From the IMG/VR virus record IMGVR_UViG_2537561992_000040: a stretch of DNA of 6,107 bases; one strand, 5' to 3'. The position numbers and the translations under genes are program-made. Below, piece after piece: positions 1-6,107 of the stretch (position 1 is its first letter; each line of letters opens with the position of its first letter). The DNA is from a virus. Taxonomy: Duplodnaviria > Heunggongvirae > Uroviricota > Caudoviricetes. The notes under the pieces are model-generated. The model had not been told where the DNA came from, ran no database searches, and saw nothing but the letters and a program-made list of their open reading frames with translations.

Positions 1-342
1 ATGATGAAAAAAAGTATTCTGACGTTTCTGTTACTCACCAGTTCTGCAGCGGCGCTGGCTGCACCGCAGGTGATTACCGTCAGTCGTTTTGAAGTGGGTA
101 AAGACAAATGGGCGTTTAATCGCGAAGAGGTGATGCTGACTTGCAGACCGGGTAATGCTTTGTATGTCATTAACCCAAGTACCCTCGTGCAGTATCCTTT
201 AAACGATATCGCACAAAAGGAAGTTGCCAGTGGGAAGACTAAAGCCCAACCCATTTCGGTGATTCAGATTGATGATCCTAACAATCCCGGCGAAAAAATG
301 AGTCTGGCACCGTTTATAGAACGAGCTGAAAAACTCTGTTAA
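1..342 (+). CDS. yebY: Small secreted/periplasmic protein, YebY-like (DUF2511 family), 113 aa
   Basis: ATG at 1, stop at 340-342. N-terminus [23 protein letters not shown] looks like a Sec signal peptide with an ALA-A cleavage motif. Length and sequence match my recollection of E. coli YebY, the last gene of the yobA-yebZ-yebY cluster. A hairpin terminator follows directly. Name is from memory, not a search. Confidence 0.7.
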
Positions 343-371
343 TTACCTAAAATAGCCTTTTGATTTCCAAT

Positions 372-412
372 AAAAAACCGCCTCAGTTCTTTCACCAGAA
401 CGGGCGGTTTTT
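372..412. terminator. Bidirectional Rho-independent terminator (yebY on +, candidate RyeA on -)
   Basis: Stem AAAACCGCC (374-382) pairs with GGCGGTTTT (403-411), with inner GTTCT/AGAAC pairing. T-run 408-412 on the + strand and A-run 372-377 (T-run on the - strand), so it can terminate in both directions. Confidence 0.6.
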
Positions 413-483
413 AACATTTCAGCTGATGACCACCACGCTTTTTATTGACCATTTTGCACGCAAACTGGAAAACCTGGCGTCGT

Positions 484-497
484 CATCTATTCTTAAA
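484..497 (+). promoter_or_regulatory. Sigma-S-type -10 element for the SdsR-like sRNA
   Basis: TCTATTCTTAA at 486-496 matches the extended sigma-S -10 pattern (T/C at -14/-13, TATACT-like hexamer, TAA downstream). The predicted start about 7 nt downstream coincides with the GCAAGG 5' end at 500. No convincing -35, as is common for sigma-S promoters. Confidence 0.5.
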
Positions 498-499
498 GG

Positions 500-602
500 G
501 CAAGGCAACTAAGCCTGCATTAATGCCAACTTTTAGCGCACGGCTCTCTCCCAAGAGCCATTTCCCTGGACCGAATACAGGAATCGTATTCGGTCTTTTT
601 TT
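500..602 (+). ncRNA. sdsR: SdsR (RyeB)-like small RNA, about 103 nt
   Basis: Sits between yebY and the prophage junction. 5' end GCAAGGCAACUAAGCCUGCAUUAAUGCC... matches what I recall of SdsR. 3' hairpin CCGAATAC(571-578)/GTATTCGG(586-593) is followed by UCUUUUUUU (594-602). The sigma-S -10 upstream fits the known RpoS dependence of SdsR. Confidence 0.65.
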
Positions 603-668
603 AATTGTATTTAAAATCAATTAGTTGCAAACGTCTCCCCGAAATTACTCGAAATTTACTCGAATTTC
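584..668. other. Candidate prophage attL (core in sRNA 3' end, IHF site, arm-type repeats)
   Basis: Layout parallels lambda attL (bacterial DNA, core, H' IHF site, P' arm sites, int). Candidate core is the sdsR terminator 3' half (586-602). AAATCAATTAGTTG at 615-627 matches the IHF consensus WATCAANNNNTTR. Tandem direct repeats GAAATTACTC / GAAATTTACTC lie at 641-661. The int stop is at 694-696, with int reading toward the site. Confidence 0.45.
641..668. repeat. Tandem direct repeats GAAAT(T)TACTC x2 plus a partial third (GAATTTC); putative integrase arm-type sites
   Basis: 641-650 GAAATTACTC, 651-661 GAAATTTACTC, 662-668 GAATTTC. Position between the candidate core and the int 3' end matches lambda P' arm-site placement. 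Confidence 0.45.
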
Positions 669-693
669 TGTATTCCGGTCTTTTTTGGTTATA

Positions 694-1809
694 TCACAAC
701 CAAAACACATTTAACAATCCATTTACGTTAAAATCAGAGCAGTAGTACGTTTTTTCTCTCTCATCAAGATACATTTTTGTTGTCTTCTCCGATGTGTGGC
801 CAAGTAGACGTTGAGCAAATTCTTCCCCACATGTTTCTTTGTACAATCGTCCAGCCAGGCTTCTGATCTCGTGAAAAGTTGGTGGGTTTTCACTGAACTG
901 GATACCTGTTAATTTTCTGGCTGCGACAAATTTCTTTGTCAGGCCGTCCGGGTGAATGCTGCCGTCAGGGCTGTTTTTTCTAATCCCGGCACTGATTAGA
1001 TAATCCCCCCTACTTACCATGCGGCACTGTTCAACTACTGTACCAAGTCGTAAACCAGCGACAGGAAGGCTGAGTGACAGGGGGATAGCAATCATCATTC
1101 CTGTCTTAATTTGCCTGATGTGGAGACGATCATCATAAATCTCACTGAACCGCATATTTGTTATGTCTTCGCGACGTTGTCCTGTTACAAGGGCTAAGTC
1201 CATAGCTAATGGGAACCATGTCGGAAGTTGATCTGCTGCCTCCCTGATGCAGTTGTATGTCTTTAGTTTCAGCCGTTCTCTTGTAACTACTATTTTCGGT
1301 GCTCTTGTTGGCGTTACTGGATTTTGAGATATACGTCCTTCAACAATGGCCTCGCGGAACATATCAGATAACACAGAACGCATTGATCCTGCCATCGTGT
1401 TTTTCCCTCCTTCAATCCACAAATCAAGAAACTCGGCAATATGGCGAGTGGTTATTTCTGTCAGTAAAACCCCTCCTAATTTTTCTTTTATTGTCTCCAG
1501 TTGATTTACCCGAATTTTATAAGTATTTCTGGACACTTTTCTCCTTATAAGAATCGTTTTGTAACGTTCAATCCAGTCTGCCATAGTAAATGAGTCGAAC
1601 CCTTTTAGTTTTTCAATTAAGGCAGCAGGAGAGTAGTTTTTGTATATATAATGATTTGCTTCAATTGCCTGCGCTACTGCATCTCTTCTTGAAATTTTAC
1701 CTAGTGTAAATTCTTCTTTCGTCAGAGGGTTGCGCCAGTAATATGCTTTGTCCCTCCTTCGATATGTTAAGTTTTTAGGTAAATTGGGATCGTATTTTTT
1801 CCGCTGCAT
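694..1809 (-). CDS. int: Lambda-family tyrosine integrase, 371 aa
   Basis: N-terminus ...[27 protein letters not shown] parallels lambda Int ...PPNLYIRNNGYYCYRDPRTGKEFGLG. Catalytic-core motifs are present: TGQRREDI (Arg), [15 protein letters not shown] (His-x-x-Arg), [13 protein letters not shown] (His and Tyr nucleophile). Starts with ATG at 1809, overlapping the xis 3' end, and lies next to the att site. Confidence 0.9.
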
Positions 1810-2056
1810 GTTTTAACTTCTCCAGTAACGGACTGTCTCTCCCTTGTCGCCCATTAGGCTGATGGTGTGTTATATCGGTATCAACCTTATTTGGGTTGAT
1901 ATAGAAAGCTTCCGGAACCACCCTGTAACTCCTCCCGTGTAGTTCAGGTGCAGGATAAATGTTTCCATTCCTTGCCCATCGTCTCAGCGTTGATATTGAT
2001 GGTGGGTTATCCGGATATCTGAGTTTTCCCCACGTTTTGAGTGTCACAAGATTCAT
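1775..2056 (-). CDS. xis: Excisionase (lambda Xis-like), 93 aa from the second ATG
   Basis: MNLVTLKTWGKLRYPDNPPSISTLRRWARNGNIYPAPELHGRSYRV parallels lambda Xis MYLTLQEWNARQRRPRSLETVRRWVRECRIFPPPVKDGREYLF. Overlaps the int start by 35 nt, as xis-int does in lambda. SD AAGAGG has good spacing to the ATG at 2056; the ATG at 2062 is too close to the SD. Confidence 0.75.
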   Translation of the reverse strand: MNLVTLKTWGKLRYPDNPPSISTLRRWARNGNIYPAPELHGRSYRVVPEAFYINPNKVDTDITHHQPNGRQGRDSPLLEKLKHAAEKIRSQFT

Positions 2057-2162
2057 TGCCATACCTCTTACGATATGACCGCCAGTAAATATACAGAATA
2101 CTGGCGGGTGTGGTTGATTTTTAATAATCAGCTATGAAGTTCTAATTTGTATATAATGCAAC

Positions 2163-2351
2163 TCACGAGGACAGAAGTTTCTCGCAATTAAAATTTATCA
2201 GCTTTACTTTCTGCTCTCTGGACACGCCTGCTTCTTTTTTCCCTGAGAGCATTTTTTCGCATTCTGATTTCGTTAATTTAGATTTTGAATATCTTGTCCA
2301 GTTAGTAGGAGTGCCACCTTCTTTTTCAATAGTGGCAGTTATTTTATACAT
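2163..2351 (-). CDS. Small hypothetical protein, YdaC-like by position (62 aa)
   Basis: Internal ATG at 2351 is preceded by GGAGGT at about 5 nt spacing and overlaps the ralR stop (ATG at 2349-2351, TAA at 2344-2346), suggesting translational coupling. Occupies the position of ydaC between xis and ralR in Rac. The 86-aa form in the ORF track (start 2423) would overlap ralR by 80 nt and is less likely. Confidence 0.5.
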   Translation of the reverse strand: MYKITATIEKEGGTPTNWTRYSKSKLTKSECEKMLSGKKEAGVSREQKVKLINFNCEKLLSS

Positions 2352-2538
2352 GAACACCTCCATTATTATTTCCAGTAGTTCGTTTATTCCATCTTTCGAG
2401 TGCTTCTTTTTCACTTCCACCATAGCCAGTTCGGGATTCGCATCCGTTGCATTTTGCCCGGTAATATCCTGAAATTGCTTTCACTGTAACAGATGGACAA
2501 CCACAAAACGGACATGGTTTAACATCGTCATATCTCAT
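2344..2538 (-). CDS. ralR: RalR/Lar-like restriction-alleviation protein and type I toxin (64 aa)
   Basis: MRYDDVKPCPFCGCPSVTVKAISGYYRAKCNGCESRTGYGGSEKEALERWNKRTTGNNNGGVHV has a CxxC...CxxC zinc-ribbon-like pattern, and matches the length and sequence I recall for Rac RalR (Lar). Lies immediately downstream of recT as in Rac. In-frame ATGs at 2550 and 2577 are alternative starts; none has a strong SD. Confidence 0.75.
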   Translation of the reverse strand: MRYDDVKPCPFCGCPSVTVKAISGYYRAKCNGCESRTGYGGSEKEALERWNKRTTGNNNGGVHV

Positions 2539-2594
2539 AATTTTTGTCATAAAAACTGTCTCACGTTGGCGGTGCATTACACCGCCAGGCTGAA

Positions 2595-3404
2595 TTATTC
2601 TTCTGAATTATCGATTACACTGTATTCCCCGGTTAATACAGAGGAGTCTGCCGGATCGATTGTCAGTGGTTCCTTTTCATCCATTGATACTGCACGCTGG
2701 ATTTCAATTGAGACAGGCAGGTATTTAAACAGGCGACGAATAGCCGTTTTTTTTGCCATTTCTTCCCAGTGAGTTACCCATGGCCCGTTATTACCAGCCT
2801 TACTCTGGCTGCGCACCAGTTCAATCTGTTTGCGCGTCATAACTTCAAACTGAGTCCCTCCGTCTTTCAGTCTTGCGACAGCATAGACGTGGGTCACTGG
2901 TGCATCTTCGTTTTCTCCCGGGCGGTGTATTAACTTTTCATCAAGGCCAAATTCAAAACTAAACTCGTCACCTTCACGGACAACACGGGCTGACAGGCTG
3001 GCGATTTGACCAGAACGGCGAGCCAGATCAATCATGCCGCGATAACCAATGATTAGCTGAACGTTCTTTTTACCGCTCTTTTCGTTTTTATTACCAAAAG
3101 GCAGTAAATATGCGTGGCCGAGGGCGCTACCTGGCTCAAGGCCGAGCTGTGAACACTGAACGATCGCACTGACAAAACTCATGGTGTCACAGTTTCCTAG
3201 CGCCGGAACCTTACGAATTTCTGTGGTGGCGATACGTATCATTCGTTCAGCCGTCATATGGCGTGGGAGAGCTGCTGCCAGTTGCTCTTTCATTGATGGC
3301 TGATTAATAAAGCTGATCACGTCGTTATTTTTTACTGCTGCTGGTGCACGGTTTCCCTGGGTTTTTTGCAGATCGGCTTTTGCGATAGGTGGTTGCTTAG
3401 TCAT
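2595..3404 (-). CDS. recT: RecT single-strand annealing protein, 269 aa
   Basis: From [16 protein letters not shown]... the ORF matches RecT of the Rac prophage in length and sequence as I recall it. SD AAGGAG sits 7 nt before the ATG at 3404. The start overlaps the recE stop by 8 nt (ATGACTAA), the known recE-recT arrangement. The track's 288-aa start lies inside recE and is rejected. Confidence 0.9.
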
Positions 3405-5767
3405 TTGCATACTCCTTAGCCCAGCGGGGCAGTGATAACGTTTTAATAGCTGGCCATTCATCGGTATTCAGGCAGTCAGCCAGGGTCCTCAGATTGCGGT
3501 GATATTCCTGCTGGCCTGCCAGTTTTGCTTCTTCGCCCATCATGAAAATCTCAACCGGGTAACGTCCGCATTCAACAGTTGTGCTGGCAACCAGAAAAAC
3601 GAAAGTTGGCAGCACGCCAAACTGTGCTTCATAACCGTCACTGTAGAATGCATCCTGAACGTGATAGCGGTAGTCGTAATAAGCCGTTTTGAATCGTTGA
3701 ATATCCGCTGTGGTTTTCACGTCCATGATCCAGTGAAATTCAGGAATAATTTTGTCCGGACGGCACCGACACAAAATTCCTGTTTCCGGATCTTCCCAGT
3801 AAATTGATGATTCAGCGTGTCCGGCGCTTTCAACAAGCCATTGCCCCAGCGGCAAAGCCATAACGCGTTGATACATGAGTTCAATTTTCCGGCCTTCTTC
3901 CGCAGTGATAACCGTTTTTCCTGTGCTTGCGCATTCCATCAGAAACGCTTTCTCTTCTTCTTTTCCGGCGTTTGTACGGCGGTTAAATTCAGGTGCTACG
4001 ATAAAGCGGTTACTGAATTCTTCCGGTTCAAGTACCCGGCAGTGGAAAGCGGTTCCTAAATCGAGCGTTTTTGTCTTTGTAGTGTCCACGGGGGCATTTT
4101 TACGCCACAAATACAGTGCCGGAGTATCAGCAATGTCATCGAGCTGAGACTTACTGACGCCGGGACCCGCGTGGTAATTCTCATTCGAAATTCCGTAATA
4201 AATACCTGGCTCTATGTCTTCTACGATTACGGGATCTGCGACTTCGCCAGTTTCATCACTGCAATCGCGATGCGGATCGCTGCCAGCATTCTCATTGTGC
4301 GGATGTTCAGCGCCTTCCATTTCCTCCGGATCTTTTTCCTTAGCTTCAACCTGATTCTCTTCACCGAATGTTTCCTGGTATGTTGCGTCGCCCATCACCG
4401 CACCACAGTCAGGGCAGTTATCCCCGCCAGTCTGACCGCAGGCATTGCAGACTATTTCCGGTTCCTGTTGCACTACTGGCTCAGGTTGTTTCGCATCCGG
4501 GCTGATTTTTTCCGTTTCTGGCTGGTTCTGGTACACAGAATCGCGAGTCTGGATCCCCTTAACCCATTTCGGATCGTTCGGGTCGCTAATTCCGTCAACA
4601 AATTCACCACGTGATGCAGCAAGCAATTTATCGGCATCGACAGGATTTTTTGATGGAATGTTTTTCCGGGCTTCATGGAGTTCTGCCCGCAGTTCCTGAT
4701 ATTTCGCATCAACAGAATTTACCTGTGACTGAGCATCCAGCGGCTGCGTGTTCTGATGATGTTCAGTTGCATTCGGTTCCACTGTTTCAGCCGTTGCCTG
4801 TTCATCTGCCATTGCGCCAGATGGTTGTGGTTTTTCTTCATCGTCCTGTTTTCCTTCTTCTGTTACTCGTTGCGGCATCGGGGCCGAGGAGCGACCGCAG
4901 GCAATATCCACGATTTCCGGATCAGGGTTGGCATGATCGGTTTCAGTCAGTACTTTGTTCAGATATTCAGTGACGTGTGCGGGGATGACCTCGATCCCAA
5001 TTGGTGCTTCTTTCACGGACGCAACCACGATGGCGCGGGAATAATCCAGCCCGCCAGGCATGGTGATGAATTTGTCGCGGAAAACAGAAAAGGGTGGTTT
5101 ATTTTCAGCGATAATTTCCTCAATGCGTTTAGCGTGTGCCGGATGAAGGTTATAGATGTCCACGTCCATTGAACGGGCCAGTACGCCAGTGGCTACATCG
5201 CGCGCCAGTGATGTCAGATCGTGGACGAAACCTTCGCCGCGATCGGTGAGGTTCCCGCCGCCAGCATTAGCACCGGAAGCCGTGCGAGTGATGCGTGAAA
5301 CACGATTCCCTTTTCGCCATTCTTTTGTCAGAAGACCGCGATCAATGTGTTCGGTATCCAGCCAGGCTGAAATGAAATTCTTAAATTCATAGGGCTGATG
5401 TTTTTTCGTGATAGAGAACACTGCCTTAATTGCATCAGTCAGGCGGAGCAGGGCGGCATTATCCAGAGTTGTCGGTTCTGCCATGCTGCGTATGGCCAAC
5501 AGCAGATTCTGGACATAGCTGTTTTCCTGATCCATCTCAAGAGCAGTAATGTGTTTGCGTTGTTCACGGGTGGCATGATGCAGGTATTTTCGATCCCCGG
5601 CTGCATACGTAAAAATGTGCAGAAGACGCTGTGTGAACCGCAAAGTGGCTACAGAGACTTCGCAATCCTGGCAATCCTCGTGGGCGTCTGCCTGCGCGTT
5701 TTCTTCCTGGCCTCCCGTCGGTTCTTCGGTTTCCGGTGCATCCTCCTGATGGTGAACGTCGTCTGGC
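3397..5767 (-). CDS. recE: RecE (exodeoxyribonuclease VIII), 5'-truncated by an IS insertion; C-terminal nuclease region intact
   Basis: C-terminus ...[56 protein letters not shown] and the internal region DRGLLTKEW...[27 protein letters not shown] match recalled RecE. The frame stays open up to the IS terminal repeat at 5768. The track ORF reaches 5793 only by using a GTG inside the IS end. About 790 recE codons remain, against 866 in K-12 RecE (recalled), implying roughly 75 N-terminal codons displaced. Confidence 0.85.
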
Positions 5768-5795
5768 TGAGGTAGCCTGAGTTTAACGGACACTC
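5768..5795 (+). repeat. Left terminal inverted repeat (IRL) of the IS600-like element
   Basis: TG-initiated terminus with the conserved GGACAC block at the same offset as in IS3. Exact inner boundary is uncertain, and the partner IRR is outside the window. Confidence 0.5.
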
Positions 5796-5831
5796 CTTCC
5801 TGAAATAGAATGGCATCAGAAGGAGCTAATA

Positions 5832-6107
5832 ATGAGCAGAAAAACCCAACGTTACTCTAAAGAGTTCAAAGCCGAAGCTGTCAGAACGGTTCTTGAAAAT
5901 CAACTTTCGATCAGTGAAGGCGCTTCCCGATTATCTCTTCCTGAAGGCACTTTAGGACAATGGGTTACCGCCGCCAGAAAAGGGCTCGGTACTCCTGGTT
6001 CCCGCACGGTGGCTGAACTGGAATCTGAAATTCTGCAACTGCGTAAGGCGTTAAATGAAGCTCGCCTTGAGCGAGATATATTAAAAAAAGCAACAGCGTA
6101 TTTTGCA
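5832..6107 (+). CDS. IS3-family transposase OrfA (helix-turn-helix plus leucine-zipper region), partial with 3' end beyond window
   Basis: SD AGGAG at 5821-5825 sits 6 nt before the ATG at 5832. [45 protein letters not shown] has an HTH-like segment, and [30 protein letters not shown] is the heptad leucine-zipper region typical of IS3 OrfA just upstream of the frameshift site. Confidence 0.85.
6083..6089 (+). promoter_or_regulatory. Candidate -1 programmed ribosomal frameshift slippery heptamer (A AAA AAA G) for an OrfAB fusion
   Basis: Zero-frame codons are TTA AAA AAA GCA, giving the heptamer A_AAA_AAA at 6083-6089 followed by G. It sits at the end of the zipper region, where IS3-family elements carry their A6G-type frameshift signal. 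The downstream stimulatory structure is outside the window. Confidence 0.45.

Follow-up and report, generated by a model that had tools for sequence, protein, structure and literature searches.

An insertion sequence that enters the 5' end of a prophage recombination gene may silence that gene or, if transcription reads out of its end, may switch on a truncated product. Which of the two outcomes applies to recE in E. coli EPECa14, in a Rac-like, lambdoid prophage integrated beside yebY/sdsR, is the question raised by this locus. An earlier note placed an IS600-like insertion in the 5' end of recE, held recT and the recE nuclease region to be intact, and allowed either that recET was silenced or that an sbcA-like expressed allele had been created. 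The window, which is the whole stretch of 6,107 nucleotides analysed, was examined to locate the junction and to identify the signals that remain around it.

The recE-IS600 junction

On the minus strand, window positions 3397-5767 hold the last 2371 nt of recE, corresponding to nt 282-2652 of the uninterrupted gene. The reference was the intact recE of E. coli O26:H11 11368 (locus L002, 5198-7849, 883 aa), which the window matches at 2371 of 2371 nt. The nucleotide alignment gives residues Pro95-Asp883 plus the stop codon as retained, or 789 of the 883 RecE codons. The O26:H11 gene runs 281 nt further upstream, and the window switches to the left end of IS600 at 5768. The element entered after recE nt 281, in codon Ala94 of 883. 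The complete 883-codon frame from the native start is absent, IS600 standing in place of the first 281 nt (codons 1-94); what is encoded is hence a disrupted gene and does not count as a functional RecE family member. The last recE bases before the IS are GGC (5765-5767), the presumed 3-bp target. The junction at 5767/5768 is exact and not a statistical signal. As the earlier note had claimed, the insertion disrupts the recE 5' end, and every coordinate it gave was correct.

A location of IS600 upstream of recE, with the native start at or downstream of 5767, was considered and ruled out. The O26:H11 11368 recE continues 281 nt beyond the junction, which places the IS inside the gene. An N-terminus of about 96 residues, conserved between the uninterrupted allele and K-12 RecE, is encoded in that region upstream of the junction. 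Window 1-5767 as a whole is 99.95% identical to the intact O26:H11 11368 prophage, which occupies the same chromosomal site.

The inserted DNA (5768-6107, plus strand) is the left 340 bp of IS600, an IS3-family element, and begins with the terminal inverted repeat starting TGAGGTAGCC. It is identical at 340 of 340 positions to the 1264-bp IS600 (L001) of strain 08_4358, which sharpens the description "IS600-like" to IS600 itself. It also matches IS600 on Shigella flexneri M90T, Shigella sonnei and E. coli plasmids, again at 340/340. In the identical 08_4358 copy, the ends TGAGG...CCTCA are flanked by a 3-bp direct repeat, which fixes the IS end exactly and sets the terminus at 5768, where it had been proposed to lie. 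The full element ends in TGAGGT...ACCTCA, imperfect repeats of ~27 bp, and the window contains the left end alone. From ATG 5832 orfA runs off the window on the plus strand (HTH_Tnp_1, E=1.2e-20). The window holds this part of orfA only; the frameshift site and orfB, which give the fused DDE transposase (orfAB), fall past the contig end and are annotated in the identical copy of 08_4358. The IS600 transposase genes are directed away from the remaining recE.

The EPECa14 draft contig ends 341 nt into IS600. A chimeric contig end joining recE to an unrelated IS600 copy is suggested by this proximity of the junction to a draft contig end and by its being shared by no other genome. However, the break coincides exactly with the outermost base of the IS600 terminal repeat, as a genuine transposition would leave it, and independent IS600 insertions are found in recE of finished genomes. 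An assembly artefact is extremely improbable.

Other IS600 insertions in recE and the course of the event

Two other strains carry IS600 in the same recE allele through independent insertions, and NCBI PGAP marks both as pseudogenes. Strain 08_4358 (NZ_CP074904.1, KIM11_RS17865 / RS17855) resembles EPECa14 in prophage, yebY/sdsR site, IS and orientation. Its recT and nuclease domain are likewise intact, and PGAP annotates its recE as incomplete, a pseudogene. Window 1-5767 aligns to this genome in two pieces at 99.98% identity with 1 gap. The 08_4358 insertion is nevertheless an independent event, with the IS ~260 bp further into recE at window-equivalent 5505-5507, a 3-bp duplication GAT, and ~180 N-terminal codons displaced as against 94 in EPECa14. 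In FDAARGOS_943, the presence of IS600 in recE goes along with the loss of neighbouring prophage DNA.

The EPECa14 junction itself was not seen elsewhere. An exact 40-nt scan for the left junction gave 0 matches in the GTDB species representatives, and the junction was found in none of 5,426 complete E. coli genomes. The single full-coverage match, to 08_4358, was rejected as the same junction, being three joined pieces around a different IS600 site. A 712-aa form beginning at Met87, present on 9 other contigs, was also rejected; it reflects an assembly break, because these contigs start at window-equivalent 5546, in recE, with no IS.

We propose that a 1264-bp IS600 copy transposed into codon 94 of the 883-codon recE, probably as a simple insertion. 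The event is recent, as no other change has arisen in the 2371 nt of recE that are left. A simple insertion predicts the right junction GTACACCTCA-GGC-GCTGCTCCCGG, in which the right end of the IS is followed by a second copy of GGC and then by recE read from nt 281 towards nt 1. The other IS end was sought in the protein collection through the predicted 100-aa N-terminal hybrid, and none was tied to EPECa14. The same was true of 16 hybrid variants (90-99 aa truncations; target duplications of 0-9 bp). N-terminal fragments of 90, 92 and 96 aa were rejected as the EPECa14 product, since they belong to other assemblies.

The absence of the hybrid and its variants, together with the DNA loss that accompanies IS600 in FDAARGOS_943, is consistent with an IS-mediated deletion or inversion that removed the 5' fragment of recE together with the early-left genes upstream of it, or moved them elsewhere in the EPECa14 genome. 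On the other hand, a repeat such as an IS is where a draft contig would be expected to stop, gene callers often miss short ORFs beside a contig end, and the 08_4358 sister copy entered by simple insertion with a 3-bp target duplication. A deletion or inversion is possible but unlikely. Deletion, inversion and simple insertion have the same consequence for recE.

Expression signals left to recE and recT

As the earlier note had it, recT and the nuclease region of recE are intact, and both are matched by Pfam. The 269-aa recT frame lies at 2595-3404 on the minus strand (Pfam RecT, E=1.5e-56), coordinates shared by annotated homologues. The last 8 nt of recE lie within recT (recE stop 3397-3399, recT start 3404), and recT has its own Shine-Dalgarno sequence, AAGGAG, with a pairing energy of -8.6 kcal/mol. 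The PD-(D/E)XK nuclease domain of RecE is encoded at 3448-4155 on the same strand (Pfam DUF3799, hybrid residues 547-782, E=1.1e-27). By alignment to K-12 RecE, the K-12 nuclease domain (564-866) corresponds to window 3400-4308. Identity to K-12 RecE is 84% overall and ~95% over the nuclease region.

The IS stands between the surviving recE (95-883) and recT on one side and the native ATG, with its ribosome-binding site and all that precedes it, on the other. The recE frame remains open into the IS as a 798-aa hybrid ORF (3397-5793, minus strand; GenBank EFZ38886.1, "exodeoxyribonuclease 8"). The hybrid consists of MSVKLRLPQ, nine codons that come wholly or in part from the IS600 end, followed by RecE 95-883, and the exact 798-aa protein was matched on one contig only, that of EPECa14. 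On direct reading of the minus strand, its GTG start (5791-5793, complement of "cac") lies inside the IS600 terminal repeat and is directly abutted by the Shine-Dalgarno-like AGGAAGGA (5794-5801, complement of "tccttcct"). The anti-Shine-Dalgarno pairing at this GTG, -6.5 kcal/mol, compares with -6.6 kcal/mol at the native recE start and the recT value above in the same scan. The spacing is zero, and the GTG is therefore probably a poor start; the previous judgement that it is unlikely to function was reasonable. Two further features that had been described are present in the sequence: an in-frame TAG (5857-5859, minus strand, complement of "cta"), 66 nt or 22 codons upstream of 5793, and the first in-frame ATG within recE (5533-5535, minus strand), which is hybrid codon 87 and Met172 of intact RecE. 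No Shine-Dalgarno-like sequence precedes this ATG (-1.5 kcal/mol). An additional in-frame TTG at 5641-5643 (codon 51), absent from the earlier note, is also without one (-0.5 kcal/mol).

Transcription from the IS600 left end with initiation at GTG 5793 would make this an sbcA-like allele, giving constitutive MSVKLRLPQ-RecE(95-883) and RecT and equipping the strain with a RecET pathway independent of RecA. The open frame from the IS-borne GTG into recE, the Shine-Dalgarno-like sequence, and the intact nuclease domain and recT are compatible with such activation. In addition, the C-terminal part of RecE suffices genetically (PMC11611040), and K-12 recET is switched on by rare sbcA mutations (PMC3945230, PMC6379578). 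The promoter scans, however, argue against it. The strict scan of the minus strand over 5300-6107 and of the full IS found no outward site, the sole match being the inward promoter-like site of IS600 itself (TTAACG-17-TAGAAT, 5783-5811, plus strand). The relaxed scan of the outward strand gave 8 matches against 7.9 expected by chance. Against silencing stand two 9/12 matches on this strand, at 5960-5930 and 5884-5854, albeit with a poor 19-nt spacer, and the sigma-70-like consensus behind these scans may miss weak or non-canonical outward promoters.

In the known mode by which IS3-family elements activate their neighbours, the outward -35 is located in the right end, but recE here adjoins the left end of IS600. 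No outward promoter of IS600 was reported in the literature searched, and AGGAAGGA touches the GTG. With no promoter-like site reading out of the IS above chance, the proposal of an sbcA-like expressed truncated RecE was not borne out, and activation of this kind is very unlikely. We give hardly any credence to the broader idea that this is a natural sbcA-like allele in pathogenic E. coli, with the three independent IS600 hits in the recE 5' part reflecting selection and not chance.

The earlier note had also stated that recET in Rac is normally silent until sbcA-type rearrangements supply a promoter. This describes the defective K-12 Rac prophage in ttcA. The prophage at yebY/sdsR is a related one at another site, and induction would presumably bring its recET to expression as part of the early-left operon. 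With the IS in place, early-left transcription would have to cross ~1.25-1.26 kb of antisense IS RNA. This stretch is predicted to be untranslated, since the displaced 5' fragment would end 5 codons into the IS, and Rho-dependent polarity is expected as a result. No antisense open stretch crossing the IS was longer than 97 codons. The C/G composition of the antisense IS RNA, taken as a hint of Rho loading, gave no clear signal.

The antisense IS strand showed no convincing intrinsic terminator, so antiterminated early-left transcription might read through on induction. Even weak initiation could then give activity, because the nuclease domain alone substitutes genetically for full-length RecE (PMC11611040). 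The gene pair may accordingly keep a conditional, partial function, in which induced and (we assume) antiterminated read-through combined with a weak start yields a truncated active RecE together with RecT. The candidate starts for such a product are GTG 5793, TTG 5643, ATG 5535 or one further in, and the contribution of the first 94 residues, e.g. to efficient linear-linear recombination, would be lost. The lack of a strong terminator and the strong Shine-Dalgarno sequence of recT are in its favor. It is countered by ~1.25 kb of untranslated RNA, which has no spanning ORF and is expected to provoke polarity, and by a usable Shine-Dalgarno sequence at no in-frame start. Conditional function of this kind is quite unlikely.

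Outcome and comparison with known systems

Silencing is the favoured reading, and we consider it likely that recE in EPECa14 is a simple IS-made pseudogene and not an activating sbcA-like allele. The IS left end would supply no outward promoter, and no in-frame start seems to be preceded by a properly spaced ribosome-binding site. Full-length RecE cannot be produced, little or no N-truncated RecE would be made, and recT expression would probably be reduced by polarity. The recE::IS600 allele is a real but ordinary pseudogene. Its importance beyond annotation is small: EFZ38886.1, a 798-aa IS-recE hybrid listed as an ordinary exonuclease VIII, deserves a disrupted-gene flag. The allele also adds to the cases in which IS600 wears away prophage genes in EPEC/STEC-type lineages. 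Activation, if it were true, would make the allele more important, as a natural constitutive source of RecET that could accelerate prophage mosaicism and the rearrangement of a pathogen's genome.

From the work of Kaiser and Murray in 1980 and Chu et al. in 1989, sbcA alleles reportedly supply transcription and, in the fusion alleles, translation as well. The EPECa14 allele differs in that, as judged from its sequence, it appears to supply neither a promoter nor a usable start. The EPECa14 prophage also differs from K-12 Rac in its integration site and in its mosaic RecE. A precedent for activation is that recE and rusA of cryptic K-12 prophages are switched on by Tn5/IS50 and IS2/IS10 insertions. 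In rus-1 and rus-2, IS2 or IS10 lies upstream of an intact rusA and reads outward from a known promoter, and Tn5-activated recE is similar. EPECa14 resembles these cases in having a transposable element beside a silent prophage recombination gene; unlike them, it carries the IS within the gene, with no detectable outward promoter in the IS end next to recE. The likeness to the K-12 Rac sbcA mutations is one of position, the region affected being just upstream of or in the recE 5' part. What matters in the K-12 sbcA pathway is C-terminal RecE and RecT (PMC11611040, PMC6379578, PMC3945230), both retained in EPECa14.

IS600 is amplified and active in EPEC/STEC-type lineages, where it inactivates genes such as lacZ, reversibly through the IS-excision enhancer (IEE) (PMC9397093). 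In lacZ::IS600 of STEC O121:H19 the target gene is different from that in EPECa14, but the same IS inactivates a gene in a pathogenic E. coli lineage in which IS600 is amplified, and precise excision through the enhancer is possible (PMC9397093). The insertion in recE could likewise be reversible if the EPECa14 strain carries IEE.

The prophage arm and the insertion in recE

The window forms the final 6.1 kb of contig ADUN01000180.1 (32,185 bp) in the draft assembly GCA_000188755.2 of Escherichia coli EPECa14, a contig that ends 341 nt inside an insertion sequence. It is the left arm of a Rac-like lambdoid prophage. Chromosomal yebY (1-342, plus strand) is followed by the SraC/RyeA and SdsR/RyeB sRNA pair (462-606, both strands, Rfam matches), and then by genes for an integrase (694-1809) and an excisionase (1775-2062), a DUF1187 (rcbA-like) gene overlain by the antisense antitoxin sRNA RalA (2167-2345, plus), ralR/lar (about 2344-2538, Pfam Lar_restr_allev), recT (2595-3404) and recE (3397-5767), all of these genes on the minus strand, and the start of the IS (5768-6107, plus). 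The RalR/RalA type I toxin-antitoxin pair is intact, the RalA sRNA scoring 219 bits in Rfam. The prophage adjoins the 3' end of the SraC/RyeA-SdsR/RyeB pair, downstream of yebY (462-694, the integrase gene ending at 694). Whereas K-12 Rac occupies a site in ttcA, the EPECa14 prophage joins the same recET module to another integrase and attachment site. O26:H11 11368 and strain 08_4358 both differ from the window in the length of the yebY-integrase intergenic region (about 343-693), by a single nucleotide.

E. coli O26:H11 11368 carries the same prophage, uninterrupted, at this chromosomal position, and window 1-5767 matches it with 99.95% identity. Its recE is 2652 nt long (883 aa), and window 3397-5767 corresponds to nt 282-2652 with zero differences. 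From 5768 the intact gene reads GCTGCTCCCGG... and the window reads TGAGGTAGCCTGAG..., which puts the junction within codon Ala94, between nt 281 and 282. This displaces residues 1-94 of RecE and leaves 95-883 in place. Residues 1-96 match the N-terminus of K-12 RecE (866 aa) at ~95% identity, 97-232 form a mosaic block unrelated to K-12, and 233-883 are again ~95% identical. What was displaced is, by this comparison, genuine coding DNA rather than DNA upstream of a native start at or downstream of 5767, so the IS lies within recE, as the earlier note had proposed. The IS stands at codon 94, immediately before the variable RecE block (window 5060-5767, given as residues 95-232 of the intact protein).

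The element, described earlier as IS600-like, can be named more exactly. Its copy in the finished 08_4358 genome measures 1264 bp, begins TGAGGT and ends ACCTCA, has imperfect terminal repeats and sits between copies of a 3-bp direct repeat; the annotation there gives an IS3-like IS600 transposase with programmed frameshift. Window 5768-6107 is identical at 340/340 positions to this element and to IS600 copies on plasmids of Shigella flexneri M90T and S. sonnei, and orfA (ATG 5832) matches HTH_Tnp_1. By identity, annotation and domain match the element is IS600 itself. Its left end faces recE and its transposase genes are directed away from recE.

Transcription and translation of the remaining recE

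Three requirements for expression were examined: transcription from the IS, transcription from upstream, and translation. On the minus strand, a strict sigma-70 scan found nothing promoter-like in 5300-6107 or over the whole IS; its sole match was IS600's own inward promoter (5783-5811). With relaxed criteria the outward strand yielded 8 matches vs 7.9 for shuffled sequence, and both of the best matches have a poor 19-nt spacer. In the IS3 family, activation of neighbours comes from an outward -35 that the right end carries; recE abuts the left end of IS600, not the right. No report of an outward IS600 promoter was found in the literature searched. From the operon promoter, transcription would reach the remaining recE only across 1264 bp of antisense IS. 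The frame of the displaced 5' fragment would end 5 codons into IS600, and the antisense IS strand has no open stretch >97 codons; therefore ~1.25 kb would go untranslated, so that Rho-dependent polarity can be expected there. A scan for antisense terminators gave only weak terminator-like hairpins, at chance level.

The coordinates that the earlier note gave for the recE frame agree with the sequence and the ORF list. The minus-strand ORF 3397-5793 (798 aa) starts at a GTG (complement of 5791-5793), a TAG lies in frame at 5857-5859, and codon 87 (5533-5535) is the earliest ATG in frame. An additional in-frame TTG, missing from that account, lies at 5641-5643 (codon 51). The only Shine-Dalgarno-like sequence, AGGAAGGA (complement of 5794-5801, -6.5 kcal/mol), directly abuts the GTG with zero spacing; TTG 5643 (-0.5) and ATG 5535 (-1.5) are without one. 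The corresponding values are -6.6 at the native recE start, where the spacing is normal, and -8.6 at recT. The older GenBank record EFZ38886.1 for EPECa14 names the hybrid ORF (3397-5793, minus strand), whose start codon is inside IS600, an ordinary "exodeoxyribonuclease 8" with the disruption unflagged. An exact protein look-up placed the 798-aa hybrid in one contig only, that of EPECa14.

Together, the transcription and translation scans indicate that full-length RecE cannot be made, that a truncated form would be produced at best weakly, and that recT is probably subject to polarity, though it retains its own ribosome-binding site. The nuclease domain of K-12 RecE (564-866) genetically replaces the whole protein, and full-length RecE increases the efficiency of linear-linear recombination (PMC11611040). 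Truncated EPECa14 RecE would be competent if expressed; the scans give no reason to think that it is. In K-12 Rac, recET is repressed and rare sbcA mutations activate it (PMC3945230; PMC6379578). The earlier note left silencing and sbcA-like activation as alternatives. The promoter, read-through and start-site scans favour silencing, and with no sequence feature speaking for it, sbcA-like activation of EPECa14 recET is very improbable.

Independent IS600 insertions in the same recE allele

The contig does not extend to the other IS end, the displaced recE 5' fragment or the expected duplication of GGC. The EPECa14 junction is absent from complete E. coli genomes and from GTDB species representatives, and protein look-ups with the predicted N-terminal hybrid and many variants of it turned up no EPECa14 fragment. 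Nine further draft assemblies have contigs starting at window-equivalent 5546 in recE (1-60 of one such contig, L006), with recE sequence and no IS; several prophages per genome with a common recE 3' part, breaking assembly, are the likely cause.

Two more independent IS600 insertions are found in the same recE allele, in the finished genomes 08_4358 and FDAARGOS_943, and NCBI PGAP labels both genes incomplete recE. In 08_4358 the element (8309-9572 of the recE locus, L001) has the same orientation as in EPECa14 and the target is GAT at window-equivalent 5505-5507. In FDAARGOS_943 the orientation of the element (4738-6001 of the recE locus, L004) is opposite, with an end at window-equivalent about 5514 and a deletion alongside. 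The deletion associated with this IS600 covers the recE 3' part, recT and DNA up to the integrase gene. By analogy with the event in 08_4358, a simple insertion would be the likeliest state of EPECa14 recE. An IS-mediated deletion or inversion is possible, and in FDAARGOS_943 IS600 lies in recE beside exactly such an outcome. The insertions in 08_4358 and FDAARGOS_943 are 6-8 bp apart in opposite orientations. Locally, the recE 5' region may be a hot spot for IS600.

That the remaining recE has not diverged at all and the IS end is 100% identical indicates a recent insertion in EPECa14, in the likeliest case a simple one. IS600 is multi-copy in such strains: the search matched as many as 43 places in one genome and 20 in that of 08_4358, counts that combine IS600 and recE matches. 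IS600 has amplified in STEC lineages, where its insertion knocks out genes, lacZ among them, and an IS-excision enhancer can excise it (PMC9397093). The structural reading of the earlier note, recE disrupted by IS600, holds: EPECa14 recE is a prophage gene that IS600 recently turned into a pseudogene of an ordinary kind, and the finding adds nothing beyond known kinds of system.
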